A stretch of 64,000 bases of DNA, from positions 211,562 to 275,561 of the forward strand of contig JAVZPM010000001.1 in assembly GCA_038881595.1 (NCBI GenBank). Direction: 5' to 3'. The notes under the pieces are model-generated. The model was not told where the DNA came from. It searched no databases and worked only from the letters and a program-made list of their open reading frames with translations. The DNA comes from Candidatus Micrarchaeia archaeon (GTDB lineage Archaea > Micrarchaeota > Micrarchaeia > CABMEP01). Positions 1,322 through 61,440 of this stretch are shown here, piece after piece; within the stretch, counting starts at the first letter, position 1; each line of letters begins with the position of its first letter. The position numbers and the translations under genes were made by a program.

Positions 1322-1416
1322 TATTACCACCACAACATGAATATTAACAAGAGAATAAGTTCTCCTAATTAATATTGTTTCTAATAATTTAAGAATTTTA
1401 CCTATCTCACTTAAAG

Positions 1417-1489
1417 CGAGCCCGAGGGGATTCGAACCCCCAACCTCTTGGTCCGAAGCCAAGCGCTCTATCCGTTGAGCTACGGGCCC
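1417..1489 (-). tRNA. tRNA-Arg (anticodon TCG)
   Basis: Reverse complement GGGCCCG-TA-GCTCAACGGATAGAGC-G-CTTGG-CTTCGGA-CCAAG-AGGTT-GGGGGTTCGAATCCCCT-CGGGCTC-G folds as a cloverleaf: 7-bp acceptor stem (one G-U), U33, anticodon UCG, T-loop TTCGAAT. 73 nt, no intron. Confidence 0.85.
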
Positions 1490-3688: not shown

Positions 3689-4114
3689 ATGTGGAAAAAG
3701 GGGGCAGTATTTACATTAGAGGCGTTGATTACGTTTACATTATTCTTAATTTCAATTACATCTCTTTATCTGTTAATACAACAAAAACAAAATCCTATCC
3801 CATTATATGAAACAGTAATACTGAACGATGTCTATCAAGTTTTAGAGCTAAAATACCATACAGACTTATCTTCATTTGCAAGAACAGGACAGGTTTCAAC
3901 TGAACTGAGAGATTATTTTAATTATGTAAAAGATTCTACTGGTCAAATTATATTTTTAAAATTTGGAAATTTTTTCTATTCAAGCAATAATTCAGTCTCT
4001 TGCATTCCTTTAATTACTCAAAAAAGGCTTCTTGTTTATTTTGATCTAGATATAGGAATAACAGATACAAAGGTAAACTATTTTCATGAATTAACAATAG
4101 GCTTATGCAGATAA
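3689..4114 (+). CDS. Type IV pilin-like protein (class III signal peptide), 141 aa
   Basis: MWKKG|AVFTLEALITFTLFLISITSL: KKGA followed by FTLxE, with Glu at +5, the classic prepilin peptidase substrate motif. Confidence 0.55.
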   Translation: MWKKGAVFTLEALITFTLFLISITSLYLLIQQKQNPIPLYETVILNDVYQVLELKYHTDLSSFARTGQVSTELRDYFNYVKDSTGQIIFLKFGNFFYSSNNSVSCIPLITQKRLLVYFDLDIGITDTKVNYFHELTIGLCR

Positions 4115-4160: not shown

Positions 4161-4427
4161 TTATCTCTTTTTCTTCTGCCTTTTTTCATCAACGTTTTGC
4201 TTAGCCGTATTTTTCTTTTCCTGGAGAACAATTGTTGTTGCAAAACCGCTTGCAACCGCAGAAGCGCTTACTAAAGCAGTACTTACTTCAGGTGAAAACA
4301 AAGCGCCAAGAGTCAGCATGCCAAGTCCAGCAACAGTTCCTCCGATTAATCCTTCTAATATTACAGGAACTGATTCCTCTGGCTTAAGCTCTTTTGGAAA
4401 TAATATCTCCTTTACCATAAATATCAC
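4161..4427 (-). CDS. Small membrane protein, 88 aa, hypothetical
   Basis: The ORF has a Gly/Ala-rich hydrophobic core (ILEGLIGGTVAGLGMLTLGALF..) and a Lys-rich C-terminal tail. No family was recognised. Confidence 0.35.
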   Translation of the reverse strand: MIFMVKEILFPKELKPEESVPVILEGLIGGTVAGLGMLTLGALFSPEVSTALVSASAVASGFATTIVLQEKKNTAKQNVDEKRQKKKR

Positions 4428-5057: not shown

Positions 5058-5149
5058 ACTTTATTTATATTCTTTATGATTAAGGTAGATGTCTAAAACC
5101 CTAAGCACGTATATTTTATATATTTTTTTCATTATATATCTTAGAGTGT

Positions 5150-5285
5150 GCCAGAGTAGCTCAGTGGTAGAGCGCCAGTGAACTTGATTCATTATCTAGT
5201 TCGGCGACACTCATAAGTCAGATTTCTACTCAAGATCTTAGACTAAGAAATCTGGAGGTCGAGGGTTCAATCCCCTCCTCTGGCA
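5150..5285 (+). tRNA. tRNA-Met or tRNA-Ile2 (anticodon CAT), with two introns (5179-5208 at 30/31 and 5216-5249 at 37/38)
   Basis: Exon 1 is GCCAGAG-TA-GCTC-AGTGGTA-GAGC-G-CCAG (5150-5178). Exon 2 is ACTCATA (5209-5215). Exon 3 is A-TCTGG-AGGTC-GAGGGTTCAATCCCCTC-CTCTGGC-A (5250-5285). Joined, they give a perfect 72-nt cloverleaf with anticodon stem CCAGA/TCTGG and loop CTCATAA. No single-intron excision yields an anticodon loop. An intronic helix CAGATTTC/GAAATCTG spans the 3' junction of intron 2. Confidence 0.55.
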
Positions 5286-5317
5286 CTTAAGGAAATTATA
5301 TTTATTTTATTTGTGAT

Positions 5318-6503: not shown

Positions 6504-8315
6504 TTAAGCCAGCAAGGCATCAAGACTTTCAACCGCCTTCTTTACTCCAGATATTACAAATCCGATAGTTTCTCCTTTCTTCAAGAGGCATACTAATATA
6601 ACGTTTCTTCCATTGTAAATTAATGAATCTCCTTCTGAACCCTTCAATAAAATGTATCTGCTTTGCCCTTTGTCAAATTCAAAGGAAGCCATGTCGCTAT
6701 TTGCTATTGCCTTTGCAGCTATAGCAGATATAAGATTGGAATCAACTTCTTTAGGCATCATCGAAGCAACAAGAAGTCCATCTTTCCTTACTGCTGCCAC
6801 CCCATCAACCTTTCCTCCGCTTACAATGCTATTTAGAACCTGCATTACTTCATTCTTGTCTATTACAACAGTTTTTATTCTTTTCAAGGCACCTTCTTCA
6901 ATTGTAAGCGATTCACCAATGTGCTCAGACATATATCTGGTCAAAGCCCATTTTCTCCATCTTGAAGGTATGTCTGCCAGCATGCTTATTTCAATCTTAT
7001 CATTTGTTTTCAGTAGTTCATCTATTTGGTTCCTCCATTTTGGCCAATTCTCTAAAATCTCTCCTTTACTTGTTAAGCCATCAATTGCAGCTTGAATGTC
7101 AATTATTGACTTATTTATCTGGGGAAGGTATTGTTCAGCATTTTCTGGTGTCAACTCAAGCATGTATCTTTCCATCTTCTTTCTTTCAACTTGCACAAGT
7201 ATCTCTTCATTTTCAGTATCTATTTTGTTTTCAGCAGCATTCATTATTTTATCTTCAAGTTTATCTATCCATGCACTTGCTTCCTTTATCTTTTCCTTTG
7301 CAATCTCCATAGGAGTCATATAATACCTTTCTCCAAACAACATACCTTTTATTATATCCATTAATGAATAGTAGAGAGAGATTATTCCTATTGATATTGC
7401 AAATGCACCTAATAGTTTAGGAACATTTGTTCCTAGCCTCACAAGAGTTTCCATATCTGTGCTGCCTGGAACTTCTTTAGTAAATATAATTATCACAACT
7501 CCAATTATAATACAAGCTATTCCAGTAGCAATCCAAATTAAGTTGTCTTTTCTTCCATGTCCGATGAAATTGTATACTTCTGTCATTAATGGTGTTTTCT
7601 TTATCATGCTAACTACATACGCACCTAATAAGGCAAGTATCTCTAGATATATTAGAACGACTATAAATAGCAGTGTTCCATATATCGCAGAGGCAATATA
7701 GAAATCAAGATTTGCCTTTAGCACATTATATATTCCATCTGCTATTTTAGATATTGTTACAAAGAATGGGACATTCTTAGGATCTATTACACTTACCTCT
7801 AAATATGCAGACTGCGCATATTTTTCAACCCATGCCTTGTTTATTTCTTGAAACACAGTTGTCTTATAATAAATCGTTTTGCCTATATCCTCGCTTCCAG
7901 AGAATGTAAATTTCCAGCTTACAGCGATCGGAGGTTCAGATCTAAGAAGCTCACTGTATTTTGGACTGAATTCTAGCTTATCTAAGCTTAATGCCAAAGA
8001 AGAAGGAATGGTTTCTCTAAGGGTTATGTCAGTTATTTTATCTGTAGCCTTTGAAATTAGTGTTATCTTTACAGTAACTTCATTGCCAAGGTTCTTCTGA
8101 ACAATTATTTCTCTTATCATTGTTATTGACTGAATTTCTTTTGGTGTGAATACATATATTATTTCATCCGGTATTCCATCGTTATTCAGATCTACACTTC
8201 TTTCACTTTGGATCGTTTCTTTCTCAGAAGGATAAACGTTTTTCTGCAGGCAGCCAGACATGAAAATGAATGAGAATAAAACAATCAATAATAATCCAAA
8301 TTTTAGTCTTTTCAT
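6504..8315 (-). CDS. Membrane protein with lipobox-like signal, multiple TM helices and C-terminal Roadblock/LC7 (MglB-like) domain, 603 aa
   Basis: N-terminus MKRLKFGLLLIVLFSFIFMSGC has an archaeal lipobox-like SGC. There are central TM helices. The C-terminal about 100 aa, GKVDGVAAVRKDGLLVASMMPKEVDSNLISAIAAKAIANSDMASFEFDKGQ..LIYNGRNVILVCLLKKGETIG, match the Roadblock/LC7 fold. Confidence 0.6.
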   Translation of the reverse strand: MKRLKFGLLLIVLFSFIFMSGCLQKNVYPSEKETIQSERSVDLNNDGIPDEIIYVFTPKEIQSITMIREIIVQKNLGNEVTVKITLISKATDKITDITLRETIPSSLALSLDKLEFSPKYSELLRSEPPIAVSWKFTFSGSEDIGKTIYYKTTVFQEINKAWVEKYAQSAYLEVSVIDPKNVPFFVTISKIADGIYNVLKANLDFYIASAIYGTLLFIVVLIYLEILALLGAYVVSMIKKTPLMTEVYNFIGHGRKDNLIWIATGIACIIIGVVIIIFTKEVPGSTDMETLVRLGTNVPKLLGAFAISIGIISLYYSLMDIIKGMLFGERYYMTPMEIAKEKIKEASAWIDKLEDKIMNAAENKIDTENEEILVQVERKKMERYMLELTPENAEQYLPQINKSIIDIQAAIDGLTSKGEILENWPKWRNQIDELLKTNDKIEISMLADIPSRWRKWALTRYMSEHIGESLTIEEGALKRIKTVVIDKNEVMQVLNSIVSGGKVDGVAAVRKDGLLVASMMPKEVDSNLISAIAAKAIANSDMASFEFDKGQSRYILLKGSEGDSLIYNGRNVILVCLLKKGETIGFVISGVKKAVESLDALLA

Positions 8316-10239: not shown

Positions 10240-10362
10240 GTGGGGATGGCAGAGCCTGGTCAAATGCGCAGGACTTAAGACCCTGGTACAGGCTTACTCC
10301 TTTATAGAAGTAAGAAATCCTGTGCCGTAGTGGCTACGTGGGTTCAAATCCCACTCCCCACA
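10240..10362 (+). tRNA. tRNA-Leu (anticodon TAA) with canonical 37-nt intron (10280-10316)
   Basis: GTGGGGA-TG-GCA-GAGCCTGGTCAAA-TGC-G-CAGGA-CTTAAG[intron]A-TCCTG-TGCCGTAGTGGCTAC-GTGGGTTCAAATCCCAC-TCCCCAC-A. This is a class II tRNA with a 15-nt variable arm. After excision the anticodon stem is perfect. The intron contains ACCCTGG, an alternative partner for the 5' stem, as expected for a BHB-type structure. Mature length is 86 nt. Confidence 0.75.
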
Positions 10363-10416: not shown

Positions 10417-13400
10417 ATGAATCATTCGAAAAGGTTTTCATTTTTTCCTTTATCATTCATTCTAATTATCTTTTTCTTTCAATTAACATTTGCAGTATAC
10501 CCAATTATTTCACAAAGTCAAAGAGAGGCAGTTCCAATAAACGAGTCTCTGAGGAGCGTGGAAGGAATTTATTCTGTTTTCCCATTTGTTGACTGTAGTT
10601 TAATACCTGAGAAATATGGTGGATTTGGACATTGTAATAATTTCGTTGCTGATTTTTGCATAGATAACCAGTTTCATTTAAGTCAAAGTATTGTTCCTCT
10701 AACTTCTGAAGAAAGAATTGCAATGAAGAGCATAATAGCAAAATTAGAATCAGCGGATAATGCAGTTGTCTCTATGAAAAATAAACTTCTTAATCTTCTT
10801 GTTAAGAAAAACTGCACATATCAAATATTACTCTACGTTCCTTACGCTACGATATCGAATATAGTCGGAATATTACCTTCTATGGACTATGAAGGATTTA
10901 AGAGATCTCCAATTAAATTAAGTAGTTTTGTGGTTAAAGTAGAATTAAAATGCGAGGGAGTAGATATACCTATTTTCTCGAACCTTGTTGATTTTGTAGT
11001 AGATATTATTACCAGTTTTGACAGATATTTAGAGCTTCAGGCTGCAGCCTATGAAAATTCAGGAGAGGCATTGAATGAATTGTTTAATCTTGTTATTCAA
11101 CAAGCAGATTCTCTTTATTATGAAGGTGCAGGATATTCGAATTACTCAACTTCAGCCTATAAATTCTATAATGAAAAGATAAAGTCATTCATCTATAAAT
11201 CTAACCAAAATCAGATCGAGCCAACACAATCTGATTTGAATTCTCGAGATTTCTCCTCATACTTTATATATGTGAGAAACGTTAGTAAGAAAGTAAGCTT
11301 AGAACGAGTGAACAAGCTTTCAAACTGTGAAATTGCAGTAATGTCATCTCCTCAATATATTGTAGCATTTAATTACTTAATAGATCTATATAGAGAGATT
11401 CAAGAAGCAAGGGCTACTTTAAGGTCGGATTATGATGTAGCAAAGTCGGAAGCAACACAGAAATTCATTGATGCACAGACAAGATACAACATTCTAATGA
11501 ATGAGAAATATTGGCTTATCAATCAATCGATAGTAGCTTATGCATTAAACGCATCCCAAGAAACAACAATGCAAGAAGGATTGGTGATACCTTCAGATTC
11601 TTTACTGCAAATTAAAGAACTATTGTACGGTTCAGGTTCGTCTACAAGTGTGAAGAATCTTTTAGATTCAGCAAACAAGGATACAGAAAATCAAGTAATA
11701 TTCTATTATTCAAAAGGCATCGAAAAGTTTAGGAAAGCAACAGAACTATCAAAATTTGCAATCAACAACTCATACAAAATAGAGACAGAATCCGATAATG
11801 TTCTAATTTCACTTAATGAAAAAGTAAGGTACAAACTTGAAAATGCATATAACAGTCTATCTAAATATCCAGTTTATGATGTCACATCAGCTTCAGCTTA
11901 TGATTTGTTGAATAATAAATATCAAACAGCATACTCAATATATAATAATTATAATCCATCAAATACAACTAAAGGAGAAAGAATAGTTCACCTATATAAT
12001 GCAGCATTAACGCTTGATGAAGTAATATCATTTGCTTCTATAAAGTCATCAGATATCATAGAATTAAAAAAGAAATCGTTTAAAGAGGCATTAGATGAGT
12101 TAAATTTAACTATAAAGAAAGCACAAATAGATGAAATCGATATTACAGCTGAACTCCAATTATTAAATTCTAAGGCTTTACTTTTAGGAATGAATATCAA
12201 TAATATTTCATTTCTAGAAGATTCATTAAAGGCTCTTATTCAAGCAAAAGAAGATATATATTCGAGAGCAGAATCAGTATATTCAGATATTCCGTCACTT
12301 AGGTCAAGAATTTATTCAATAATTAATTCTATTTCACCATACATTAATACATATCAATACAAAAACGTGATTGATCAAATAGATAGAATGTATTTTATAG
12401 ATAACAGTTTTAATCCAAAGAGATGTCTTGGAAACTATAAATCAATCAAAAACAATTATTCTGCTGTTTTGGAAGATCTTAATAAAAATGCAGCTTCATT
12501 ACTTTCAATATATTTGTCAAACAAATATAGTGCAAGGACATTATTTGATACAACACCACAAGTTGATTCTTATACAAATATAACTACATATTTAGAGATA
12601 AAGAATGATTTATCCTTAAGTACTAATTCTCAAGTTGTTGTTCAGGTAAGAGGTATTCCATATGAAGTAAATAGTATTATCGAGTCAGAAATTCCAGGTA
12701 TATATGCGATAAAGAATAAAGATTATGTTTCTATTTATTTCCCAAGTATAAATAAAACTACTAGTTATCTTTTGAAAATAAAATCATATGTCAAGCCCTC
12801 CATTTTAACTTCAAAGAAAACTGAAAGGTTAGTTCTTACAAATGAAAGATTGACAGAAAAAATTACATACGAAATTGATTCTATTTACGACATTGATTCA
12901 TTGATTTTAACAGACAATTATTGGGCTGACGAATGTTCCGTTTTTATGAATAATAGAATGCAAACTGTAAGATCTTATTCTAATCTGTCTATTTCACTTT
13001 CAAATGTAAAAACAGGTAAACAAGTAATTTATGCAACCTGTACTAAGAACAATCCAATTACATATTCTACATCTGGGTTTACAAGTTCTGATAACAAAAT
13101 TTCATATACTTTACAAATAAAGAGTAATTACGAGGATTTAAGTGATGTTGATTATGTATTAGAAATAATGGGTTCTGCAGATGAAATTCAGTCCGATAGT
13201 ATACGTGTTTATGATTCTAAAGGCCAAATAACAAAGAACTTTCAATTTTATAGATCTGGTGATAAATATTATGCAAAGTGGTTTATCCCGATACTTTCAT
13301 CAGAGTATCAGAATTATACTGTTTCATATCTAACAACAGATATTGTTTCTTACTATTCAAAACTAAAAAGTGAGATAGAGAATATTTCAACGTCTGAGTC

Positions 13401-14694
13401 TATAGATATTTCTTCTTATATTAGAGACGCAGTTTATCGTGCAAGTAGAGGAAAATATGATGAAGCAATAAATTCTCTCGACAAGGCAAAGAAAGAAATA
13501 TCTCAAGTTAGAGTTCAACGTTCAGAGAACGCATCACTTACAGAGAGACTTGATAAGTTAAGCAATCATATTTTGCAACTTAAAAACAAATCAAATGAGA
13601 TTTATGCAATAGCAACAAATCTTTCTTTATCTGATATAAATGTAGAAGTTGCAAAACAAATATCAGAATTTGAGGTTGATTCACAATTAGCAAGAAATTA
13701 TCTATTGAAAGGGGACGTTGCTAATGCAAAATCATTAATCTCTAAGCTTGAAAAATTGGTTTCGTCTACAAAGGTCGATAATTCAATCTATACAAAGGAA
13801 AAGAAAATTTTAGATTCTCTAACTCAAACAGAAAGGAAGGTTGTAAATATAGGTAAATTTATAGACATTTCTTCACAAGTAGAGAAGCTTAACAAAATAA
13901 AATCTTCTATTTCATTGATAGAACCTGCAGTAGCAGTCCAAGATTATTATACTGCATTAATAAATCTTAATAATGCCTTTAATTTAATTAATGAAATAAA
14001 TTCAAATATTGAAAACAGTTCTATTCAAATAAATGCACAACTTGAAGCTAAATTAAAAATTTCAAAAGAAGTTCTGGATAAATGGAAAAAGAACAAGAAA
14101 ATTATTCTTATTGCGTTTTCTATAGATAAAAATTCACCTATAAAATCCATTCCAGAACCAATAAATGAGATATTAAATAAAATAAACATTACCGATTCGA
14201 TGGTAAACGAGCTTAATATATTATATTCGAAACTTAATGGATATAAATTAGATGAGAGAATAAGTAATATTGCTGAATTCGATGAATTAGATTCAAAGAC
14301 AGATAAAATACAAAAAGATATTGAATATTATGGCAAACTAGTAGATCAATATAAGAGTGCATCGAATGAAATAATAAAAGATGCAGGTTTACTCCTTGAA
14401 GAAAAGCTAAATAAAGGTTCTGCAAATGAAAAGAAGAAAGCTATAGATCTACAGCCAGTTCTTTCTTCTGCAAAGGAATTATATTCTACAGGAATGTATC
14501 TAAATTCAATGATGTTAACTCAATATGTAAGAGACGAGCTAATTTCAATTCCATCAAGTGAAGCAACTATAGATTTAACATTATTGATATATTTTGGTAT
14601 AGTAATTATTACAATAGCGATTATATTAAAGATAATATCAAAAAAAGAACCACCAAAGATAGAACGAAAGATAGAAAAAATTAAACTAGATTAA
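10417..14694 (+). CDS. Very large (1425 aa) surface protein: N-terminal signal peptide, Asn/Ser/Lys-rich coiled-coil-prone ectodomain, C-terminal TM anchor
   Basis: N-terminus MNHSKRFSFFPLSFILIIFFFQLTFA is a signal peptide. The C-terminus, TIDLTLLIYFGIVIITIAIILKIISKKEPPK, is a TM helix plus basic tail, the archaeal C-terminal anchor type. No catalytic motif was seen. Confidence 0.6.
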   Translation: MNHSKRFSFFPLSFILIIFFFQLTFAVYPIISQSQREAVPINESLRSVEGIYSVFPFVDCSLIPEKYGGFGHCNNFVADFCIDNQFHLSQSIVPLTSEERIAMKSIIAKLESADNAVVSMKNKLLNLLVKKNCTYQILLYVPYATISNIVGILPSMDYEGFKRSPIKLSSFVVKVELKCEGVDIPIFSNLVDFVVDIITSFDRYLELQAAAYENSGEALNELFNLVIQQADSLYYEGAGYSNYSTSAYKFYNEKIKSFIYKSNQNQIEPTQSDLNSRDFSSYFIYVRNVSKKVSLERVNKLSNCEIAVMSSPQYIVAFNYLIDLYREIQEARATLRSDYDVAKSEATQKFIDAQTRYNILMNEKYWLINQSIVAYALNASQETTMQEGLVIPSDSLLQIKELLYGSGSSTSVKNLLDSANKDTENQVIFYYSKGIEKFRKATELSKFAINNSYKIETESDNVLISLNEKVRYKLENAYNSLSKYPVYDVTSASAYDLLNNKYQTAYSIYNNYNPSNTTKGERIVHLYNAALTLDEVISFASIKSSDIIELKKKSFKEALDELNLTIKKAQIDEIDITAELQLLNSKALLLGMNINNISFLEDSLKALIQAKEDIYSRAESVYSDIPSLRSRIYSIINSISPYINTYQYKNVIDQIDRMYFIDNSFNPKRCLGNYKSIKNNYSAVLEDLNKNAASLLSIYLSNKYSARTLFDTTPQVDSYTNITTYLEIKNDLSLSTNSQVVVQVRGIPYEVNSIIESEIPGIYAIKNKDYVSIYFPSINKTTSYLLKIKSYVKPSILTSKKTERLVLTNERLTEKITYEIDSIYDIDSLILTDNYWADECSVFMNNRMQTVRSYSNLSISLSNVKTGKQVIYATCTKNNPITYSTSGFTSSDNKISYTLQIKSNYEDLSDVDYVLEIMGSADEIQSDSIRVYDSKGQITKNFQFYRSGDKYYAKWFIPILSSEYQNYTVSYLTTDIVSYYSKLKSEIENISTSESIDISSYIRDAVYRASRGKYDEAINSLDKAKKEISQVRVQRSENASLTERLDKLSNHILQLKNKSNEIYAIATNLSLSDINVEVAKQISEFEVDSQLARNYLLKGDVANAKSLISKLEKLVSSTKVDNSIYTKEKKILDSLTQTERKVVNIGKFIDISSQVEKLNKIKSSISLIEPAVAVQDYYTALINLNNAFNLINEINSNIENSSIQINAQLEAKLKISKEVLDKWKKNKKIILIAFSIDKNSPIKSIPEPINEILNKINITDSMVNELNILYSKLNGYKLDERISNIAEFDELDSKTDKIQKDIEYYGKLVDQYKSASNEIIKDAGLLLEEKLNKGSANEKKKAIDLQPVLSSAKELYSTGMYLNSMMLTQYVRDELISIPSSEATIDLTLLIYFGIVIITIAIILKIISKKEPPKIERKIEKIKLD

Positions 14695-15007: not shown

Positions 15008-15529
15008 TTACATTTTGATAGAATTTAATTTTATGTAGTCAACCTTTTTATTTTCTCTTACAATTGCAATAATAAGATTCTTTTTAGCAATTTGAGCAAT
15101 TCTTAGTAATCTATATATCTCTAATATAGTAATCTTTTCTCTATCGGAAATCACTTCTATCAAGAAACTACTCTTCCCTTCTCCAGGTCTTATACCTTTC
15201 TCATAGGCCCTTAAATGTGTTCCAAATATATATCCAGATTTTAGTATATATCCTTTTTCTCTAAGGTCTGAATAGACAGTATATTTAATATCAATATCCT
15301 TTTCTTTTTTTCTAAATTCTTTCATTAATTCTTTAAATTCAATTTTTTTATTTTTAGATTCAACCATTATTCTCTTATTTTCTAACAAATACAGTGCTTC
15401 ATATGGGGAAAGAATAAGTCTTTGTTCTTTGTCAAGAGTTCCATATCCTCTTTCCGTTAATAATTTAATCATTTTAGGATCTTCTTCAACAACAAAATTT
15501 TCTAGCAGATAAGCCATAAAATCACACAC
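15008..15529 (-). CDS. endA: tRNA-splicing endonuclease (homotetrameric-type subunit), 173 aa
   Basis: The C-terminal catalytic domain YTVYSDLREKGYILKSGYIFGTHLRAYEKGIRPGEGKSSFLIEV matches the EndA signature (Y..KGY.VK.G.KFG..FR.Y, H..F.V). Its length suits an alpha4-type enzyme. Confidence 0.8.
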   Translation of the reverse strand: MCDFMAYLLENFVVEEDPKMIKLLTERGYGTLDKEQRLILSPYEALYLLENKRIMVESKNKKIEFKELMKEFRKKEKDIDIKYTVYSDLREKGYILKSGYIFGTHLRAYEKGIRPGEGKSSFLIEVISDREKITILEIYRLLRIAQIAKKNLIIAIVRENKKVDYIKLNSIKM

Positions 15530-22076: not shown

Positions 22077-22187
22077 TGGGCCGGCGGAGATTTGAACTCC
22101 GGACCTACAGTTATCCTAAACCAGTTCTGAATATATCAGAACGCGCCATATAAGACTGTCGCTCTGACCTGGCTGAGCTACCGGCCC
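22077..22187 (-). tRNA. tRNA-Ile (anticodon TAT) with canonical 36-nt intron (plus-strand 22113-22148)
   Basis: Reverse complement GGGCCGG-TA-GCTC-AGCCAGGTCA-GAGC-G-ACAGT-CTTATA[intron TGGCGCGTTCTGATATATTCAGAACTGGTTTAGGAT]A-ACTGT-AGGTC-CGGAGTTCAAATCTCCG-CCGGCCC-A. The acceptor and D-arm, GGGCCGGTAGCTCAGCC.GGTCAGAGCG, is the archaeal tRNA-Ile signature. U33 is followed by UAU. The intron has a perfect GTTCTGA/TCAGAAC hairpin. Confidence 0.7.
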
Positions 22188-51484: not shown

Positions 51485-54400
51485 ATGAATAAATCTGAAA
51501 TGAAAAAAGAAATTAAAATCAAACCTTCCTCTTTTTCAAATATTATGGTTTTTCTGATCATCTTTTCTTTGATGTTTATTCTTGTCTCTGGATGCATCGA
51601 ATTAAAGCCAAGGGAAGGGATAAGTACCACAGTTCCAGTTACAGTAACGAAAGGAAGTGATGTCTGTGTTGGTTACAATGAATCTACCTGCGGTGCTTTC
51701 TTAAAGGAAAAAAGAACTGCAATTTCTGATTATATTTGTAAAGGACCTATCGGTCCTTCTTATTCAAAGATGGACGAAGTAACTTATTCTCTTTCAGTTG
51801 AAAAAGGTTGGAGTTGTGAGGAAACAAAAACATATCTAGTTTTAGCAGGAAATAACTATATATTGTCAGGTTCAGGTCATATGGGTAATCCACATGGTGG
51901 TAGCATAACATTAGAAGATTCAAGAAATGTAGTATCACCAATATCTTATGGAATGAATAATCTAACTTTGAAATGTTATGTGAATGTATCTGTTAGCGTT
52001 TCAAAAGGTAAATATGAGAGGGGTTCATTTACCTTGAAATTTGATGGCTCATCTGATATCTTATCTCCAGGAGACCGTTTTGATGGACAATACTCATTTT
52101 TCGTACTACCATTAACTTTAACTCAAGAAAATAACAAATTAGTTGGAAATCTTAGTTTTTTAGGTACTTGGACAGTTACTGGAAAAGAATACGGTAGTTG
52201 GCCAAATAAAAAACACAAATCAGACATGGACGTTTCTTACTTTATTTCTTGTACTCCTTTTGCAAGCTACAATATTAATTGGAGATGTAAAAATACATAT
52301 ACTTTAGAATCATATGATTTTGTAAATTGCAGCTATGATGAATTTTCAACATTCCAGGGTGGAAGAACATTCCTTGATAACAATACTCCATTCAGCAAGC
52401 TTAGCAACTATATTCAATCATATTATGGGACTTACTCTTATAATCCAATTACTAAAGAAACAAAGCCAGCTGGAAAAATTCAGGTTCCATTCTTTATGTT
52501 AGGTCAAGGTCCATCATTCCAGGATTATGAAGAGGCAAAGAAGCTATGTGTCCCATGGAAAGAAACGATAGTAAATGTTTCATTAGGGAACACTACATTT
52601 GATCCACCGTTTTTGACAATACCGGCTGGTCTAGAGTTATGTATTGATAATAAAGACAATAAGAGGCATGATATAACTATAATCAATCTTCAGGATCAAA
52701 GTATAATAAAACAATACATTCTTCAGCCAAAGCAATTTTCGTGCTATCTACCTTATGAAGGCTTTTATCACATAAAAGATTCAAATGGGGACTATGCTTA
52801 TTTATCAGTACTAAAGGCAACAGATACAACTCAAATTTATATAGGGCGTAACATTGTTCCTAATTATACAGTAGTTAATGAAGGAGGATTTGTCAATTTC
52901 AGTCTTATCGAAAGAAAAGAGCATAACTTGAGTATGAGAAGTGTGAATAGATTTGATGATTATATCTATGAAAATAATTTTACTCTCAATCTTTCAAATC
53001 CAGTTGAAACAATAAGAGCACCACAAACAGGAGAGTATAGGATTAATGATATCACAACAGATAAAACAAGTTATTTATTTGTTCAGTCTCCGCTTCAGAG
53101 ATTTTTATTTAAGAGGGATGGAACAATTGATCCAGGATATGAAATATATAGACCGCTTGGAGATTTGATTTGTTTTAGAAGCGAAACTGAAGGTTTAAAC
53201 ATCTCAATTTCAAGATACACAGAAACAGAAAATGGATATGAATGGATATGGCTGACTAATGAAACATTGTCTACAAATTCATATTGCTGCATTCAAGGCG
53301 CGTTACCTGGAAAATATCAGGGAATAACAACGGATGGAAGAGTTGCAAATTGGACGATAGGAAGTGGAAAGCCTTCTGCAATAGTTTCTATTCAGCCGAT
53401 TGGTTTTGAACCTGAAGAAGTAGAAAGTCCTCCAGGAACAAAGATATGTTGGGTAAATCCATCAGCAATATCAAGAAATATTATAACAAAATCATCATCA
53501 GGAAAGACATTTTTCTCAGGCCAAATTCCACCATTCTCAGATAATGTTTGTTGGCCAACTATGAACAAGACAGATTCATATGTAACTACATTTGTACCTA
53601 ACTTAGATGTGAGGAACATTGTTAATATTAAAGAGGTCGATTCAAGAAACATCCAAATACTCTCGGGTGGTGCAGGCTTTGATACTATCTCATTAATTGT
53701 AAAACCTGGCTCTCAAATATGTTGGATTAATAACGACAATAAAAATCACACCTTAAAAGATGAAAATGGAAACTACATACTCTTAGCTCCATCCCAAACA
53801 AATTGTATAGATAAGACTACTATGCAGGAAGGAAATATTTATACACGCCAGCTGGATGAAAAAGAGATTTATTCAGATGTTGGAGTTATAGATGGTAAAG
53901 GCGCAATTTTGTCTCCAAGAGGTCCTATTCCATTTTCATTATTTGTAAATCCACCAAATGTTAATATGACTCAATCAGGAGAATTATATATTACATCTCC
54001 TTCATATTTCAAGATTATAAATAAACAGAGCGTTCCATCGGAATTATATGAGATTTCATACATCATTTTATCAGCCAACTCAACTGGATTGGCAGATATA
54101 GTAAAAACCGAAAATGAAATTACTATAATTAGTTCTCCAGTTAAGAGCTATACAAAGTTATTGCTTTATGTAGAAAATACTGATGATAAAAATCATACTA
54201 TAAGAGTAGAATCAAACGGAGATGAAATTAATATTTTGCCGAACTCATTTTATTTATTTGAAATTAGCCAAAGTACAGTATTAACAGATTTAACTGTTAA
54301 AGAAAATTTGACTAGGGGTGGAATCACAAATCAAACTATAATAAACGCTTTGTCACAAATTCCGATAAATATAATAGGACCTTCAGAGATAAAATTAAAT

Positions 54401-57400
54401 AAATCTGGTTCTAATGGAGATTCATTAATATTGGCTGCTCCAATCGAACCTTATACTTCAATACTTTATGAAAATAATACAAACAAGACAATCGTGATTA
54501 CTTTTGCAGATACAAATGAATTCATACTAAAGAACCCATTGAACAACCAAACATTAGACCTTCCAACTCAAGTTATTCATGGAGATCTATCTTCTCAAAT
54601 TCTTTACGATATGAGAAAATATGCAGATGAAGGAGCAATGTCATTGCTTATTCCTTCATTCCATAATGTCACAGTAAAGTTACATTCCTCTGTTTTCTCT
54701 CCATCTGAAGCATTAATACCTGCAGGAAGCACAATTACATTTACTAATAAAGATGTAATAGATCATACAATTGATTTAATTAAAAATGAAAGTGATATCA
54801 TCTCTTCAAGATCTTTTACCCTTCTACCCTTGCAATCAAATTCAACTTCAGATACACCAAAGAATACAACATTTACTTTTTATGATCAGCTTTCTAATAT
54901 GAAAGGAAATATCACAACCATTGCTTATGATGCAAATATTGGGATAATATCAACACTAATTTATCCAGAATATGGAATGGTTGCAGTTGGCAGACCCGTT
55001 AAATTCAATAATTATGATTCAGATTCGGATTACAGGGTTGAGATTAAACTTACAGATGATTTAAACATCGAACATACATATAGCTTAAACCTTCCTAAAT
55101 ATACAAATGGAATTCCAGGGTTTGCAACTTGGATTCCAGACAAGGCTGGAAATGCAACTTATATAGTTAGAAATAATACATTCATTGTTGGAACTGGTAA
55201 TATAATTGTAAGGAATTCAATTATCAATATTTCTATTAGAAATGGGGAGTTTGAAACGAAATCAATCGCTGTTGACCATAATAGTAAGGTATGCTTTATT
55301 CCAGACTCACCGAGAAAAATCTCAATTACTAATCTAGATACTGGTGAAAAGATAGCTGAAAGAACTATTTATCCATTAGGTATTCAAGCAACAGATTTAA
55401 GTAGTGCTTGTAAAAGAATTTATAACTGTTCTGCAAAACAGCAGACTGGGGATTATGGGTGTATAGGAATAGTAAACGAGTCAGATCCTTCTACATACTG
55501 CTCTTATTACTTAACTAACCCTTCAATAGCATGTAAATTAGATAATAATATTTCATGCATTGTAAAAGACCAATATTCAAGAGATTTAGAATGTACGACA
55601 GATTATTCTAAAGATACTCAACCTGCATTGCCAGGAATTCAACCACAATGTTTGTTCAAAGCAAGATTGGATGGAGAAGCATGCAATGGTGGTTCTGTAA
55701 TTAAGAATTCTTCTTTAGCTTCGATAATTAATTGTTCAGTTTCAAATAACGGTCAGCTTCAATTTAACTATTTTGAAGGAAAAGAAAAAACAGATACTTC
55801 TAATTTGTTATGCAATGTTCAAAAATCTGATAATACTGTGTCATGCATTCCAACAGGATTATACTCAGACGTAGGTTGCATCAAAAATTCATCAGCAGAT
55901 TCTTACTGCTATTATACACCTTCACCATTAACATCTCTAGAAAAGTCTAATCCATATACATTAACTGATAATCGTTTCTGTTCAGTAACAACTGCCCAAA
56001 GAACTGAAAGATATTATACAACATATGCATGTGATATAGGTTACGATGGTGTGTGTACATGCCCAACTGATAAAATGTGTGGTGCCTTACCATGCGATGG
56101 AAGCAGTGTTCTTGCAAGTATGTTTTATAAAAAATCTTCTTCTTGTACATTATTTGATAGGAATGCATTAAATTGTTCTGGAAATAGAGTAGTTGATACA
56201 TGTTTAAAAACAGGACAATATAATTTCGTTTTTCCAGCTTTAGATAATCCAAACTTTACTATATATATGAAACCAGGTGTAGGTTTCAAGGCATGCAAAT
56301 GCTATGCAGCTAACCAAAGAATAGTTACATATGCAAATTCATGTAGTGTTAAGACTGGAGGAAGTTCAATCACTCCATTTCCAAGCAATTGTATTTTGCA
56401 GTCTGAGAAATGTATGTTCTCTTCACCATCTGTATTTTTGTGTAGTAGTGAAGAAAATTGTCCATGTAAATTTGGATGTGGAAAGAAAGTTAACTATTCA
56501 ACACTAGGAAACATAGATTGTATTCAAACCCCTGGAGGTTGTAGAATAATATCGAATTATAATTTAGATAATGGTAATTACTGTAAATATGTATATACTC
56601 AAACATGCACACCTAAACAAGGATATGAAGATAAAGTATCATGCAAATTTGATGGAACATCATGTTTAATATCAGAAGGAAAGAAAATAAGAGATGATGG
56701 TTCACATTGTAAGTTGGATTTATTTTCATGTGAACCATCTTATTTAGGTGTTAATTGCAGTTTTGATGCATCAACACAATCATGTAAAGTTAGTTCTATC
56801 GAGCAATTCTGTTTCACACCAGCTTCAACTTATATCGTTGAGGATGTAGATACTGGAAATATAATGATAGTTGAAGGTTACGATAGATATACTCCATTAG
56901 AAATAGATATTCAAAAATCTATGTTCACTCCTTCCTTTGTTACCACATCCCCATTAAGTGATGTATGTTTCCAAAGTCTTGATGGAAAAATGCACAGAGT
57001 TTTAGTTCCAGAGATAGTAAAAAGTGAAGGTTTTATCGATGTTTATCAAGATAGGCAAACATGTCTTAATTTCCCATACAATTCAGAACCATGGACTGTA
57101 AGGCTGCAGGACAAGCCAGATGTTGCATTAGGCATTAAATCAATAAAACAAGATATAGAAGTAGTTGTCAAGTCACAGATGTTTGATCCTTCTGATCTGA
57201 TTCTTAGACCCAATACATCTATTACATTTATTAACACTGATTCAGAACCGCATCAACTTAACAAAGCAATACCATCTACAAATTTTGCTAAACTTATTTT
57301 ACAAAATAACATTTTAACAAGCGATTCATTCTTTTACAATATATTAAAAGCAGAATGGATGGATAAGATCGAATGTAAGGATGATTCGGACTGTCCGGAA

Positions 57401-59860
57401 GGTTCATTCTGCGATGTAGAAAAAAGATGTCATTCTATTAAATTCTGCATGAGGGATGAGGAGTGTCCATCTCCATCTATTTGTCATAATTATCATTGTA
57501 TTCTTACAAAACAGTGCCAAACTGATTTAGATTGTGGAGTTAATAGTAAATGTATTGATGATGGAACTGGAATTAAGAAGTGTATAACATTAGATATTCA
57601 ATGTTCAGATTCATTTGATTGCTACTCTTCAGATCCAAATTCAATTTGTATTAATAACAAGTGCACACGCATATTAAATTGTACTAATTCATTGGATTGT
57701 CCATCTGGATTTGTATGTTCATCTCAAATATGCACCATGATTAAAAATTGTACAAATAATAGCGAGTGCCCACCGAATTCAGTATGTAATCAAGGTAAAT
57801 GCTCTATACCAACAATCAATAATTGTAGCTTAGACAGTGATTGTCCGAATGGAATGTACTGCACTATTGTAGATAGAACTGAAGAGGGCGAAGATGTAAA
57901 GGTATGCACTTCAAGTCCATGCATTTCAAATTCGGATTGTAGCGAAGAGAGAAGTACAGCATGTATAACCAACTTCATTACTGGTGAAAATAATTGTACG
58001 CTTTATAATTCATCTTATGCAGAACCTTTATGCACAAGCGATGCAGACTGCTCTGAAGGTGGTTGCATTGATGGAAGATGTGTTATTTCAAAGAATTGTT
58101 CACATGATTCTGAGTGTGGCATTATAAATGGTATTCAATCAGTATGTGAATCTTCTGTCTGTAAGATCCCAGTTAAATGTTCTAATTTAGCAGATTGTAG
58201 ATCTGGAGAAATATGTCAAGATGGATTCTGCAGAATATTCCATAATAAGATTTGCACTACAGATTCAGAATGTAATACTGATGAAATTTGCAAAGAAATG
58301 AAGTGTATAAAGAAGCAGAATTGTTCTTCTACTACAGTTTGTAATTTATTACAAAGTGGTGCAGCCTGTACAAATGCTTCTTCATCTTCTCCGGCATTCT
58401 GTCAATCATCTGCAAATTGTACAAGCGATGCATTTTGTGCATCGAACCAGTATTGTGATCTAGGTTTAAAGCAGTGTATTACTTATCCTAAGACAACATG
58501 TGGTTCGCCAGTATATGGATCGGATGTTAGTCAGGTTAATGTTTCATTTAATCTACCATCATCTACATATAAAGCATATTTAATTTATTCTTTCAACGAT
58601 AATGGAAATATATTATTAAATGGACAAACTATTTTACCGACAACTAAATTTAGATGCCAGTATTCGACAGTGTCTGGTGTTACATATATTGATAACTATT
58701 CTCAAACTCAACAATGGAAAATACCTTTAGGTTTGCTTAAGTTAGGAAATGAAGAAAATAATATGTCAATTACAACATGCAGTTGTTCAGGTCAAAAAGG
58801 ATTTAACATTTCAATACTTTATTATTATGTTTCCCCAGAAGGAATCAGACAAGAGTCAATTATAATAGATCCAAATTCAAAAATTCAGATCTTTTCACCA
58901 CAACAATCTGAAGAACTAGTATATATTGATAATAAGACAAAGAACGTGCTTCCAATCTCTGTGAAGTCCATTGTAGATATAGCAGGAAATGTTAATTGTT
59001 CAGCTGACTTATCTTCAATGGCTCTGGCAATTGCAAGCTATGAAAGACTTGATTATGCTACCCAGGCATGCGATTCAGGAAAGCAGATTGAATGTGCATC
59101 TTATAATCCATACGGTCCTGCAACAGTAACATTCTTTGCCTCAGAATCTGGATTAAACCTTTCAAATGAATCTGAAAGACTGTGTGCATTCCAACAACTT
59201 GCATCTGTAAAGAATATATGCCCAAATTGTACAACTGTTCTAAATGTCGGAGATGTAAACATTACACAGCTTAATAATATTTTAATTTCAGCAAATTCAA
59301 CCCTAATATTTGGTAAAAATGCAATCGATTTTGTAGATGTAATAGGCTATGATGAATTCCTTAACAATTATCCATCTTGTAGCTTTGAAGACATAATGAA
59401 TTCAATAGTAAACAAATCAAAACTTGGTTTATACAATTACACAAAGCCATCAATAATAATGAGATTTGGATTAAAGGATGGAGTCTCATTAAGTAATCCA
59501 GCATGCAACTGGACAGATGAATCTATTATAACAGCATACCAAGATTTCTATGGAATATGGATTCCAATTCTTGCAGGTTCTGGTGTGCTTGGAACAGCCC
59601 AATACTGCTTGACAGATCCATGCCCGTCATTTGATTTCTATGGTCTTCTTACCTCAGGAAAGACAAACAAGCCATGGACAGATGCATGGTTCAGGGAAGG
59701 ATGCGGAAGATATTATTATGCAGCTGAAGGATTATCATTTACAACCTTTTCAATGAAGGAAACAAACTATTCAATGTGTGATCCATCAAAGATGCTTGCC
59801 TTACTTCAGACTGTTCAATGTGCGGTTGGCAAGTATACATTAAAATCAGGAACAAGTTAA
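51485..59860 (+). CDS. Giant (2791 aa) secreted Cys-rich surface protein with lipobox-like signal and tandem CxxDxDCPxGxxC repeats
   Basis: N-terminus MNKSEMKKEIKIKPSSFSNIMVFLIIFSLMFILVSGC has an archaeal lipobox VSGC. Large beta-rich regions lack Cys. Then come more than 100 Cys in the C-terminal 900 aa, including about 14 repeats such as CKDDSDCPEGSFCDVEKRC, CTNSLDCPSGFVCSSQIC, CSLDSDCPNGMYC and CSNLADCRSGEICQDGFC. There is no C-terminal TM. Confidence 0.65.
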   Translation: MNKSEMKKEIKIKPSSFSNIMVFLIIFSLMFILVSGCIELKPREGISTTVPVTVTKGSDVCVGYNESTCGAFLKEKRTAISDYICKGPIGPSYSKMDEVTYSLSVEKGWSCEETKTYLVLAGNNYILSGSGHMGNPHGGSITLEDSRNVVSPISYGMNNLTLKCYVNVSVSVSKGKYERGSFTLKFDGSSDILSPGDRFDGQYSFFVLPLTLTQENNKLVGNLSFLGTWTVTGKEYGSWPNKKHKSDMDVSYFISCTPFASYNINWRCKNTYTLESYDFVNCSYDEFSTFQGGRTFLDNNTPFSKLSNYIQSYYGTYSYNPITKETKPAGKIQVPFFMLGQGPSFQDYEEAKKLCVPWKETIVNVSLGNTTFDPPFLTIPAGLELCIDNKDNKRHDITIINLQDQSIIKQYILQPKQFSCYLPYEGFYHIKDSNGDYAYLSVLKATDTTQIYIGRNIVPNYTVVNEGGFVNFSLIERKEHNLSMRSVNRFDDYIYENNFTLNLSNPVETIRAPQTGEYRINDITTDKTSYLFVQSPLQRFLFKRDGTIDPGYEIYRPLGDLICFRSETEGLNISISRYTETENGYEWIWLTNETLSTNSYCCIQGALPGKYQGITTDGRVANWTIGSGKPSAIVSIQPIGFEPEEVESPPGTKICWVNPSAISRNIITKSSSGKTFFSGQIPPFSDNVCWPTMNKTDSYVTTFVPNLDVRNIVNIKEVDSRNIQILSGGAGFDTISLIVKPGSQICWINNDNKNHTLKDENGNYILLAPSQTNCIDKTTMQEGNIYTRQLDEKEIYSDVGVIDGKGAILSPRGPIPFSLFVNPPNVNMTQSGELYITSPSYFKIINKQSVPSELYEISYIILSANSTGLADIVKTENEITIISSPVKSYTKLLLYVENTDDKNHTIRVESNGDEINILPNSFYLFEISQSTVLTDLTVKENLTRGGITNQTIINALSQIPINIIGPSEIKLNKSGSNGDSLILAAPIEPYTSILYENNTNKTIVITFADTNEFILKNPLNNQTLDLPTQVIHGDLSSQILYDMRKYADEGAMSLLIPSFHNVTVKLHSSVFSPSEALIPAGSTITFTNKDVIDHTIDLIKNESDIISSRSFTLLPLQSNSTSDTPKNTTFTFYDQLSNMKGNITTIAYDANIGIISTLIYPEYGMVAVGRPVKFNNYDSDSDYRVEIKLTDDLNIEHTYSLNLPKYTNGIPGFATWIPDKAGNATYIVRNNTFIVGTGNIIVRNSIINISIRNGEFETKSIAVDHNSKVCFIPDSPRKISITNLDTGEKIAERTIYPLGIQATDLSSACKRIYNCSAKQQTGDYGCIGIVNESDPSTYCSYYLTNPSIACKLDNNISCIVKDQYSRDLECTTDYSKDTQPALPGIQPQCLFKARLDGEACNGGSVIKNSSLASIINCSVSNNGQLQFNYFEGKEKTDTSNLLCNVQKSDNTVSCIPTGLYSDVGCIKNSSADSYCYYTPSPLTSLEKSNPYTLTDNRFCSVTTAQRTERYYTTYACDIGYDGVCTCPTDKMCGALPCDGSSVLASMFYKKSSSCTLFDRNALNCSGNRVVDTCLKTGQYNFVFPALDNPNFTIYMKPGVGFKACKCYAANQRIVTYANSCSVKTGGSSITPFPSNCILQSEKCMFSSPSVFLCSSEENCPCKFGCGKKVNYSTLGNIDCIQTPGGCRIISNYNLDNGNYCKYVYTQTCTPKQGYEDKVSCKFDGTSCLISEGKKIRDDGSHCKLDLFSCEPSYLGVNCSFDASTQSCKVSSIEQFCFTPASTYIVEDVDTGNIMIVEGYDRYTPLEIDIQKSMFTPSFVTTSPLSDVCFQSLDGKMHRVLVPEIVKSEGFIDVYQDRQTCLNFPYNSEPWTVRLQDKPDVALGIKSIKQDIEVVVKSQMFDPSDLILRPNTSITFINTDSEPHQLNKAIPSTNFAKLILQNNILTSDSFFYNILKAEWMDKIECKDDSDCPEGSFCDVEKRCHSIKFCMRDEECPSPSICHNYHCILTKQCQTDLDCGVNSKCIDDGTGIKKCITLDIQCSDSFDCYSSDPNSICINNKCTRILNCTNSLDCPSGFVCSSQICTMIKNCTNNSECPPNSVCNQGKCSIPTINNCSLDSDCPNGMYCTIVDRTEEGEDVKVCTSSPCISNSDCSEERSTACITNFITGENNCTLYNSSYAEPLCTSDADCSEGGCIDGRCVISKNCSHDSECGIINGIQSVCESSVCKIPVKCSNLADCRSGEICQDGFCRIFHNKICTTDSECNTDEICKEMKCIKKQNCSSTTVCNLLQSGAACTNASSSSPAFCQSSANCTSDAFCASNQYCDLGLKQCITYPKTTCGSPVYGSDVSQVNVSFNLPSSTYKAYLIYSFNDNGNILLNGQTILPTTKFRCQYSTVSGVTYIDNYSQTQQWKIPLGLLKLGNEENNMSITTCSCSGQKGFNISILYYYVSPEGIRQESIIIDPNSKIQIFSPQQSEELVYIDNKTKNVLPISVKSIVDIAGNVNCSADLSSMALAIASYERLDYATQACDSGKQIECASYNPYGPATVTFFASESGLNLSNESERLCAFQQLASVKNICPNCTTVLNVGDVNITQLNNILISANSTLIFGKNAIDFVDVIGYDEFLNNYPSCSFEDIMNSIVNKSKLGLYNYTKPSIIMRFGLKDGVSLSNPACNWTDESIITAYQDFYGIWIPILAGSGVLGTAQYCLTDPCPSFDFYGLLTSGKTNKPWTDAWFREGCGRYYYAAEGLSFTTFSMKETNYSMCDPSKMLALLQTVQCAVGKYTLKSGTS

Positions 59861-61320: not shown

Positions 61321-61440
61321 TAATGTCAGCAGCAATGCATCTTCCCCTCCGACAGGAGAGTACAAATAACATCGTGAACCGGCTTAGCTTCCGAGTTCGG
61401 AATGGGATCGGGCGTTTCCCGGTTCCTATGGCCGCTGACA
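61321..61440 (-). rRNA. rrf: 5S ribosomal RNA (solitary, not linked to 16S/23S)
   Basis: Reverse complement TTGTCAGCGGCCATAGGAACCGGGAAACGCCCGATCCCATTCCGAACTCGGAAGCTAAGCCGGTTCACGATGTTATTTGTACTCTCCTGTCGGAGGGGAAGATGCATTGCTGCTGACA has the universal 5S blocks (GCGGCCATAG, CCCATTCCGAAC, GGAAGCTAAGCC). A 10-bp helix I joins the two ends. The minus-strand ORF 61283-61609 is an artefact. Confidence 0.85.

Follow-up and report, generated by a model that had tools for sequence, protein, structure and literature searches.

Multi-intron tRNA genes and tRNA introns at non-canonical positions have been described in ARMAN-2 (Ca. Micrarchaeum), a member of the phylum Micrarchaeota (Fujishima et al. 2011, PMC3239211). 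Its pre-tRNA-Pro(GGG) carries strict-BHB introns at positions 53/54 and 59/60 (PMC3239211). The genomes of ARMAN-2, -4 and -5 possess a tRNA-Ile(UAU) and have neither a tRNA-Ile(CAU) nor TiaS (Fujishima et al., PMC3239211). [quoted passage not shown] The BHB motif is known to be cut by the archaeal splicing endonuclease between the second and third bases of each 3-nt bulge (PMC3239211). The L1, L2 and L3 loops of EndA have been linked to broad specificity (PMC5829648), and in DPANN lineages, EndAs of the alpha4 type are found together with disrupted tRNA genes (Kaneta et al.). Here we describe a tRNA gene with two introns in a 64,000-nt stretch of DNA from a Micrarchaeia archaeon, the whole of which is called the window below. 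The first-pass annotation of this gene rightly took multi-intron tRNAs to be known in archaea. Its attribution of them chiefly to the Thermoproteales was too narrow, since they have also been published for the Micrarchaeota (PMC3239211).

The region 5150-5285 of the window (forward strand) is very probably a functional elongator tRNA-Met(CAU) gene whose single 136-nt precursor carries two BHB introns (Table 1). It scores 54.6 bits with the Rfam tRNA model, whose gathering score is 29. The Rfam alignment covers the whole of the acceptor, D and T arms and finds the outer four pairs of the anticodon stem, CCAG/CUGG, intact; 73 nt occupy the place of the nine central anticodon-loop positions of the model. 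Reading of the sequence gives GCCAGAG/CUCUGGC for the acceptor stem, GCUC/GAGC for the D arm and GAGGG/CCCUC for the T arm. The 5′ strand of the anticodon stem, CCAG, ends at 5178 and its 3′ strand, UCUGG, occupies 5251-5255. Both the 5′ part of the tRNA (acceptor, D arm and CCAG) and the 3′ part, from TCTGG onward, are therefore as annotated at the outset. CCA is not encoded by exon 3. The three exons lie in order within this one 136-nt gene, which sets it apart from split and tri-split (trans-spliced) tRNAs.

Upstream of the gene, the TATA-box-like sequence TTTTATATA is kept in the upstream regions of the group A genes defined below and would be the promoter element. Downstream, the T-rich tract ATTTATTTTATTTG may be an archaeal terminator. 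The window has a GC content of about 32%. Four of its six tRNA genes contain introns, and the tRNA-Met gene is the only one with two.

Table 1. Features of the tRNA-Met(CAU) locus, its splicing motifs and related genes, in window coordinates.
Feature	Position	Strand	Description or basis
TATA-box-like archaeal element TTTTATATA	5114..5122	+	About 32 nt upstream of position 1; sequence reading
Exon 1	5150..5178	+	tRNA positions 1-30: acceptor 5′ strand, D arm, G26, anticodon-stem CCAG; Rfam alignment
BHB1, 5′ half	5170..5184	+	h GAG 5170-5172, H CGCC 5173-5176, bulge AG/U 5177-5179 (cut at the slash), h′ GAACU 5180-5184
Intron 1, 30 nt, non-canonical position 30/31	5179..5208	+	Strict hBHBh′, best in BHB scan
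BHB1, 3′ half	5198..5212	+	h′ AGUUC 5198-5202, H′ GGCG 5203-5206, bulge AC/A 5207-5209, h CUC 5210-5212
Micro-exon ACTCATA, 7 nt	5209..5215	+	A31 and C32-U33-C34-A35-U36-A37, anticodon CAU
BHB2, 5′ half	5209..5219	+	A31, H CUCA 5210-5213, bulge UA/A 5214-5216, h′ GUC 5217-5219
Intron 2, 34 nt, canonical position 37/38	5216..5249	+	ARAGORN -i after removal of intron 1
Intron 2 segment AGAUUUCU	5220..5227	+	Perfect complement of AGAAAUCU (5246-5253) across the 3′ splice site
BHB2, 3′ half	5241..5255	+	h′ GAC 5241-5243, H′ UAAG 5244-5247, bulge AA/A 5248-5250, UCUGG 5251-5255
Exon 3	5250..5285	+	A38, UCUGG, variable loop AGGUC, T arm, acceptor 3′ strand, discriminator A73
T-rich tract ATTTATTTTATTTG	5300..5313	+	Downstream of the tRNA gene; sequence reading
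EndA (tRNA-intron lyase), 169 aa from first Met	15008..15517	-	Pfam PF01974 tRNA_int_endo, PF02778 tRNA_int_endo_N
tRNA-Ile(UAU)	22077..22187	-	36-nt strict-BHB intron at 37/38

A BHB motif, for which the first-pass annotation suggested a search, is found at both pairs of junctions. The motif of intron 1 is a strict hBHBh′ of 3-4-3 geometry, with an all-G/C central helix, an h′ helix of 5 bp and an h helix of 3 bp, and its junctions (5178/5179 and 5208/5209) rank first in the BHB scan of the region. Intron 2, at the canonical position, also has a 3-4-3 motif, with one C·A mismatch at C34 in the central helix H, an h helix of 5 bp and an h′ helix of 3 bp. Owing to a run of A residues, the junctions of intron 2 can be written one base to either side with an identical product. 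Registers of its motif shifted by one base either way were rejected, since the sequence then gives poorer central helices. Motifs of equal or better formal quality number 201 on 128 kb, both strands included, or about 1.6e-3 per position. Because BHB-like motifs are so common in the AT-rich window, a BHB motif alone is weak evidence; the motif goes beyond chance here because it sits exactly at the break in tRNA homology and is conserved among orthologues. It had been supposed at first that intron 1 needs an EndA of relaxed specificity. This was not borne out, as the strict hBHBh′ motif means that intron 1 itself requires no such enzyme. Box C/D motifs, sought by eye in both introns as signs of a possible guide function, were not found.

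The other tRNA genes of the window include a tRNA-Leu(UAA) at 10240-10362 (+), with a 37-nt intron at 37/38. This intron has a perfect central helix (CUUA/UAAG) and both 3-nt bulges, with an inner helix of 1 bp only. It holds ACAGGCUUAC, which repeats the anticodon arm's 5′ half in the same sense and can pair with the same 3′ partner in a rival strict BHB. We also considered whether the tRNA-Leu gene has two nested introns and abandoned this reading, as no sensible second BHB was found for it. Elsewhere in the window are an ORF of 2791 aa at 51485-59860 (+), an ORF of 1425 aa at 10417-14694 (+) that has no Pfam match, and a 5S rRNA gene at 61324-61439 (-; Rfam, 74.8 bits). The 5S gene stands alone, and neither 16S nor 23S rRNA was detected in the window.

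Joining 5150-5178, 5209-5215 and 5250-5285 yields a 72-nt RNA whose predicted fold is a perfect cloverleaf (-29.7 kcal/mol) and which contains all the universal tRNA bases (U8, A14, G18G19, U33, G53, U54U55C56, A58 and C61). ARAGORN identifies this spliced product as a clean tRNA-Met(cat) of 73 bases. When 5179-5208 is removed, ARAGORN -i finds a tRNA-Met(cat) with a 34-nt intron at the canonical anticodon-loop position. With default settings, ARAGORN reported no tRNA at 5150-5285 or at its orthologues. The cloverleaf and the ARAGORN call confirm the micro-exon ACTCATA (5209-5215), the loop CUCAUAA and the stem CCAGA/UCUGG proposed in the first-pass annotation. Its division of the gene into three exons by introns at 30/31 and 37/38 proved right in every coordinate, as judged from the BHB geometry, ARAGORN and the intron-1-less orthologues described below.

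A CAU anticodon had been taken to mean either Met or Ile2. The body of the tRNA is not that of an initiator: it has G1-C72 and the stem CCAGA/UCUGG, with no A1-U72 and no G29-G31:C39-C41, which excludes the initiator. A separate and typical initiator (A1-U72, GGG/CCC) is present in the orthologous locus L001 at 4167-4241. The three-exon assembly could be right and its product nonetheless be a tRNA-Ile2, in which C34 would be converted to agmatidine for the reading of AUA, since CAU on an elongator-type body fits either identity and A73 fits both. However, a tRNA-Ile(UAU), the eukaryote-like way to read AUA, lies in the same window and reads this codon directly, and the acceptor strand GCCAGAG is unlike the GGGCCGG of that tRNA-Ile. 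Moreover, no other candidate for elongator Met was seen, and to our knowledge any organism must possess an elongator Met tRNA. The absence of tRNA-Ile(CAU) and TiaS from ARMAN-2, -4 and -5 (PMC3239211) also speaks against Ile2. Because of the tRNA-Ile(UAU) in the window and the ARMAN lineages without TiaS, elongator Met is favoured of the two identities first considered, and Ile2 appears improbable. Thus the product is most likely an elongator tRNA-Met, an assignment that draws on the neighbouring tRNA and on published related lineages.

Orthologues were collected in two scans. Species-representative genomes scanned with a 3′-exon pattern gave three Micrarchaeota MAGs (L001-L003), and a metagenome scan with the 5′-exon pattern GTAGCTCAGTGGTAGAGCGCCAG gave at least seven orthologues on contigs. 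The latter pattern was too general, its hits (at least 120) being mostly tRNAs of unrelated organisms; among the 123 pattern matches listed, 61 have a UCC or CCC (Gly) anticodon loop. The genes were compared as group A (the window and L001-L003), group B (L005, L019, L067 and L077) and group C (L009, L011 and L016). We used per-sequence motif tables for this comparison, as MAFFT misaligned the genes that have no intron 1. The ten orthologues are syntenic, lying between a homologue of the ORF at 3689-4114 and a PAP2-family gene. The identity of the PAP2 proteins to that of the window is about 92-93% for L003 and 64% for L001 in group A, 51-55% in group B and 32-39% in group C; L002 was left out because its fetched part ends before the PAP2 gene. 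A gene at 6504-8315 (-), encoding a 603-aa protein with a C-terminal Roadblock/LC7 domain, adjoins the tRNA-PAP2 pair in the window and also in groups B (72% identity) and C (40%).

The exons hardly vary across the 11 genes (the window and its ten orthologues), and the micro-exon ACTCATA does not vary at all. Exon 1 is identical in seven orthologues and differs in group C at position 6 only, where the change is compensated at position 67. The acceptor pair 6:67 thereby occurs as A-U, G-C or U-A among the orthologues. The interior of intron 1 is fully replaced among orthologues, with the 3-nt bulges and the 4-bp spacing retained. The H′ strand of BHB1 changes from GGCG in group A to GGUG in group B, so that a G-C pair becomes G·U. 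Its inner helix in group A is GAACU/AGUUC or GAGCC/GGUUC, with a U-A to C-G double change in L001, and in group B it is GA/UC followed by a different hairpin.

Intron 1 is absent from the three genes of group C. There, GCGCCAG is contiguous with ACTCATAA, exactly as at the predicted splice junction, and the gene reads GCGCCAGACTCATAA at the intron 1 site. Group C retains a longer intron 2, homologous to that of the window, and ARAGORN -i calls L011 and L016 as tRNA-Met with a 45-46-nt intron; its odd Ser(cga) call for L009 was set aside. This intron-1-less allele is the strongest confirmation of the intron 1 junction short of RNA data. In BHB2, the H′ strand varies between UAAG, UAGG and UUGG, and three of its four pairs persist. 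At window 5245, which faces C34, the base is A in ten of the 11 genes, U in the remaining one and never G. Hence the wobble C of the anticodon is unpaired in every precursor.

A neighbouring gene also varies in intron content. The tRNA-Arg(UCG) gene is without an intron in the window (1416-1489, -) and in L003 (3346-3418, -), and has a 73-nt or 80-nt strict-BHB intron at 37/38 in L002 (3634-3779, -) and L001 (3944-4096, -). Judged from these loci, this is an intron presence/absence polymorphism among closely related genomes.

The orthologues also bear on whether the locus might be a decaying tRNA pseudogene, in which the introns are insertions and the BHB-like pairings have arisen by chance in AT-rich DNA. 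Chance BHB-like motifs are frequent (201 per 128 kb), BHB2 is imperfect and the gene is missed by default tRNA finders, all of which would suit a pseudogene. However, the three exons have been kept in 11 genes though the flanking proteins have diverged to 32-55% identity, compensatory changes are found in the acceptor stem and in the h′ helix of BHB1, and the 3-nt bulges and 4-bp spacing are retained despite the turnover of the intron 1 interior. We regard decay as very unlikely. A tRNA-Ser(aga) with a single 64-nt intron at 5180-5243 and the loop UAAGAAA (anticodon AGA), as returned by ARAGORN -i on the unspliced gene, is effectively refuted and has hardly any probability left: it carries a U31·U39 mismatch and A33 in place of the universal U33, has no BHB at its junctions, is built on a class I body without the long variable arm that a Ser tRNA requires, would shift its supposed anticodon among near-identical orthologues (from UAAGAAA to UAGGAAA or UUGGAAA), and leaves both the invariant ACTCATA and the intron-1-less orthologues unaccounted for.

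For the two-intron tRNA-Met precursor, we propose that intron 1 is presented in an alternative fold, in which C25-C28 of the exon would pair with GGCG at the 3′ end of the intron to form a 4-bp central helix between the 3-nt bulges AG/U and AC/A. Intron 2 would be presented in the usual extension of the anticodon stem, C32-A35 facing UAAG of the intron with C34 mismatched. The archaeal splicing endonuclease would then cut each bulge after its second nucleotide, and an RtcB-type ligase would presumably join the three exons. In the product, A31 and all but one of the seven anticodon-loop bases would come from the 7-nt middle exon.

The two presenting folds draw on the same nucleotides. The CUC at 5210-5212 belongs both to the outer helix of BHB1 and to the central helix of BHB2, of which it makes up the first three bases, and BHB1 borrows one base of the D stem (C25) and two of the anticodon stem (C27-C28). 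Because of the shared CUC and the borrowed C27-C28, BHB1 and BHB2 can never both be fully formed. The minimum free energy (MFE) structure of the unspliced precursor (-48.6 kcal/mol) contains 3 bp of the H helix of BHB1, its 5′ bulge and its h′ helix, together with an intact D stem. Enforcing the full BHB1 in this precursor costs 5.5 kcal/mol above the MFE, and enforcing BHB2 costs 16 kcal/mol. Once intron 1 is removed, BHB2 lies 5.2 kcal/mol above the cloverleaf MFE. These folding energies make intron 1 first and intron 2 second the energetically favoured order, and we infer that splicing would follow it.

A segment of intron 2 may contribute to such an order. The helix AGAUUUCU/AGAAAUCU is present in the MFE structure of the unspliced precursor, and AGAAAUCU takes in the anticodon stem on its 3′ side as well as the 3′ splice site of intron 2. 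The intron 2 sequence AUUUC(N1-2)(A/U)CUCAAGA (window 5220-5235) is kept in all orthologue groups, with differing helices. In the modelled folds, the AGAUUUCU segment could be an ordering or masking device, or else the remnant of an ancestral inner helix that is seen in group C.

The EndA gene of the window, about 10 kb from the tRNA-Met gene, encodes the enzyme that presumably cuts both introns. The best PDB matches of the protein are the EndAs of M. kandleri and M. jannaschii. In NCBI, a protein with 100% identity to it comes from a 'Candidatus Micrarchaeia archaeon' MAG. An Asgard origin of the window, considered at first on account of its GC content and the Roadblock-domain neighbour, was dropped because the EndA homologues point to Micrarchaeia. 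Aligned with the alpha4 EndA of M. jannaschii, its C-terminal catalytic domain is essentially gap-free, including the site of the catalytic His, and the alignment defines a single-unit protein without insertions of the L1, L2 or L3 type. In the M. jannaschii enzyme, His125 is the catalytic general acid of a Tyr-His-Lys triad. The window EndA has a Lys at this position (GEGKSS, residue 115 of 169). His occupies the site in 96 of 112 single-unit EndA relatives, Thr in five Bathyarchaeia-like EndAs, and Lys or Arg in the 11 closest homologues, which form the Micrarchaeia group. In the close relatives P0011 (Arg) and P0012 (His) the site differs within otherwise near-identical surroundings. The Tyr is invariant among the EndA relatives and the catalytic Lys nearly so, and the window EndA keeps both, as well as the bulge-binding Arg. 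A second EndA gene was sought in the 64-kb window and in the fetched orthologous loci, and none was found.

The first-pass annotation had classed this EndA as alpha4. The single-unit, insert-free and alpha-like character of the protein agrees with this class, which nevertheless cannot be asserted with a Lys in place of the catalytic His. Since this replacement affects the only EndA of the window, the assignment of an enzyme to both introns is not secured. This protein may act on its own as a variant enzyme, or it may be partnered with another, catalytic subunit. A strict BHB is the substrate class accepted by alpha4 enzymes; as intron 1 has a strict BHB, the class of EndA matters less to the finding than first assumed. 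Some tolerance on the part of EndA is hinted at only by the mismatch at C34 in intron 2 and by the weakness of the inner helix in the tRNA-Leu intron. A more far-reaching scheme, which we consider doubtful, would combine these elements: the only splicing endonuclease of the clade would be an insert-free, alpha4-like enzyme with a Tyr-Lys/Arg-Lys site, the mutually exclusive BHB folds would impose an obligatory order on tRNA-Met splicing, and the AUUUC segment would keep the 3′ splice site masked as long as intron 1 is in place.

The analysis restores an essential elongator Met tRNA that standard finders miss in DPANN genomes, a point to be weighed when the completeness of such genomes is estimated or when tRNAs are claimed to be 'missing' from them. 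With intron 1 present in some orthologues and absent from others, they offer a natural case in which a non-canonical intron was gained or lost at one fixed site, and the neighbouring tRNA-Arg(UCG) gene shows the same presence/absence behaviour. The strict motif at 30/31 also indicates that a non-canonical position alone implies neither a relaxed BHB nor a broad-specificity endonuclease. More unusual is the lead given by the His-to-Lys EndA, which, together with the possible ordered-splicing device, is the only potentially surprising part of the system.

With respect to known systems, the tRNA-Met gene involves no new mechanism, multi-intron tRNA genes with micro-exons having already been described. 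It resembles the ARMAN-2 case in belonging to the same phylum, in having two BHB introns in one tRNA, a micro-exon of a few nucleotides and a strict hBHBh′ at a non-canonical site, and in the presence of an intron-containing tRNA-Ile(UAU) in the genome. It differs from the ARMAN-2 tRNA-Pro(GGG) in being a Met gene with introns at 30/31 and 37/38. The enzymes differ too: the EndA of ARMAN-2 is a three-unit epsilon2 enzyme with an L2 loop, whereas that of the window is a single-unit, insert-free protein of 169 aa with Lys for the catalytic His.

The Thermoproteales, as presented in Sugahara et al. (2008) through its citation in PMC11291895 and PMC3239211, have up to three BHB introns per tRNA. 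According to the same accounts, many of these introns lie in the anticodon or D-arm region, and alternative precursor folds present each BHB, as is proposed here. By those accounts, however, the Thermoproteales belong to the Crenarchaeota and have an (alpha-beta)2 EndA with an L1 loop, unlike the window, and many of their motifs are relaxed (HBh′ or hBH) whereas that of intron 1 is strict. The Asgard archaea with multi-intron tRNA genes belong to another superphylum, and the intron density looks lower in the window (four of six tRNA genes, one of them with two introns). Finally, intron 2 is like the ordinary single introns of archaeal tRNA genes at 37/38, as found in the group C orthologues and in the tRNA-Ile(UAU) of the window. 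Unlike an ordinary 37/38 precursor, the tRNA-Met precursor carries the extra intron at 30/31, which makes A31-A37 a separate exon of 7 nt.
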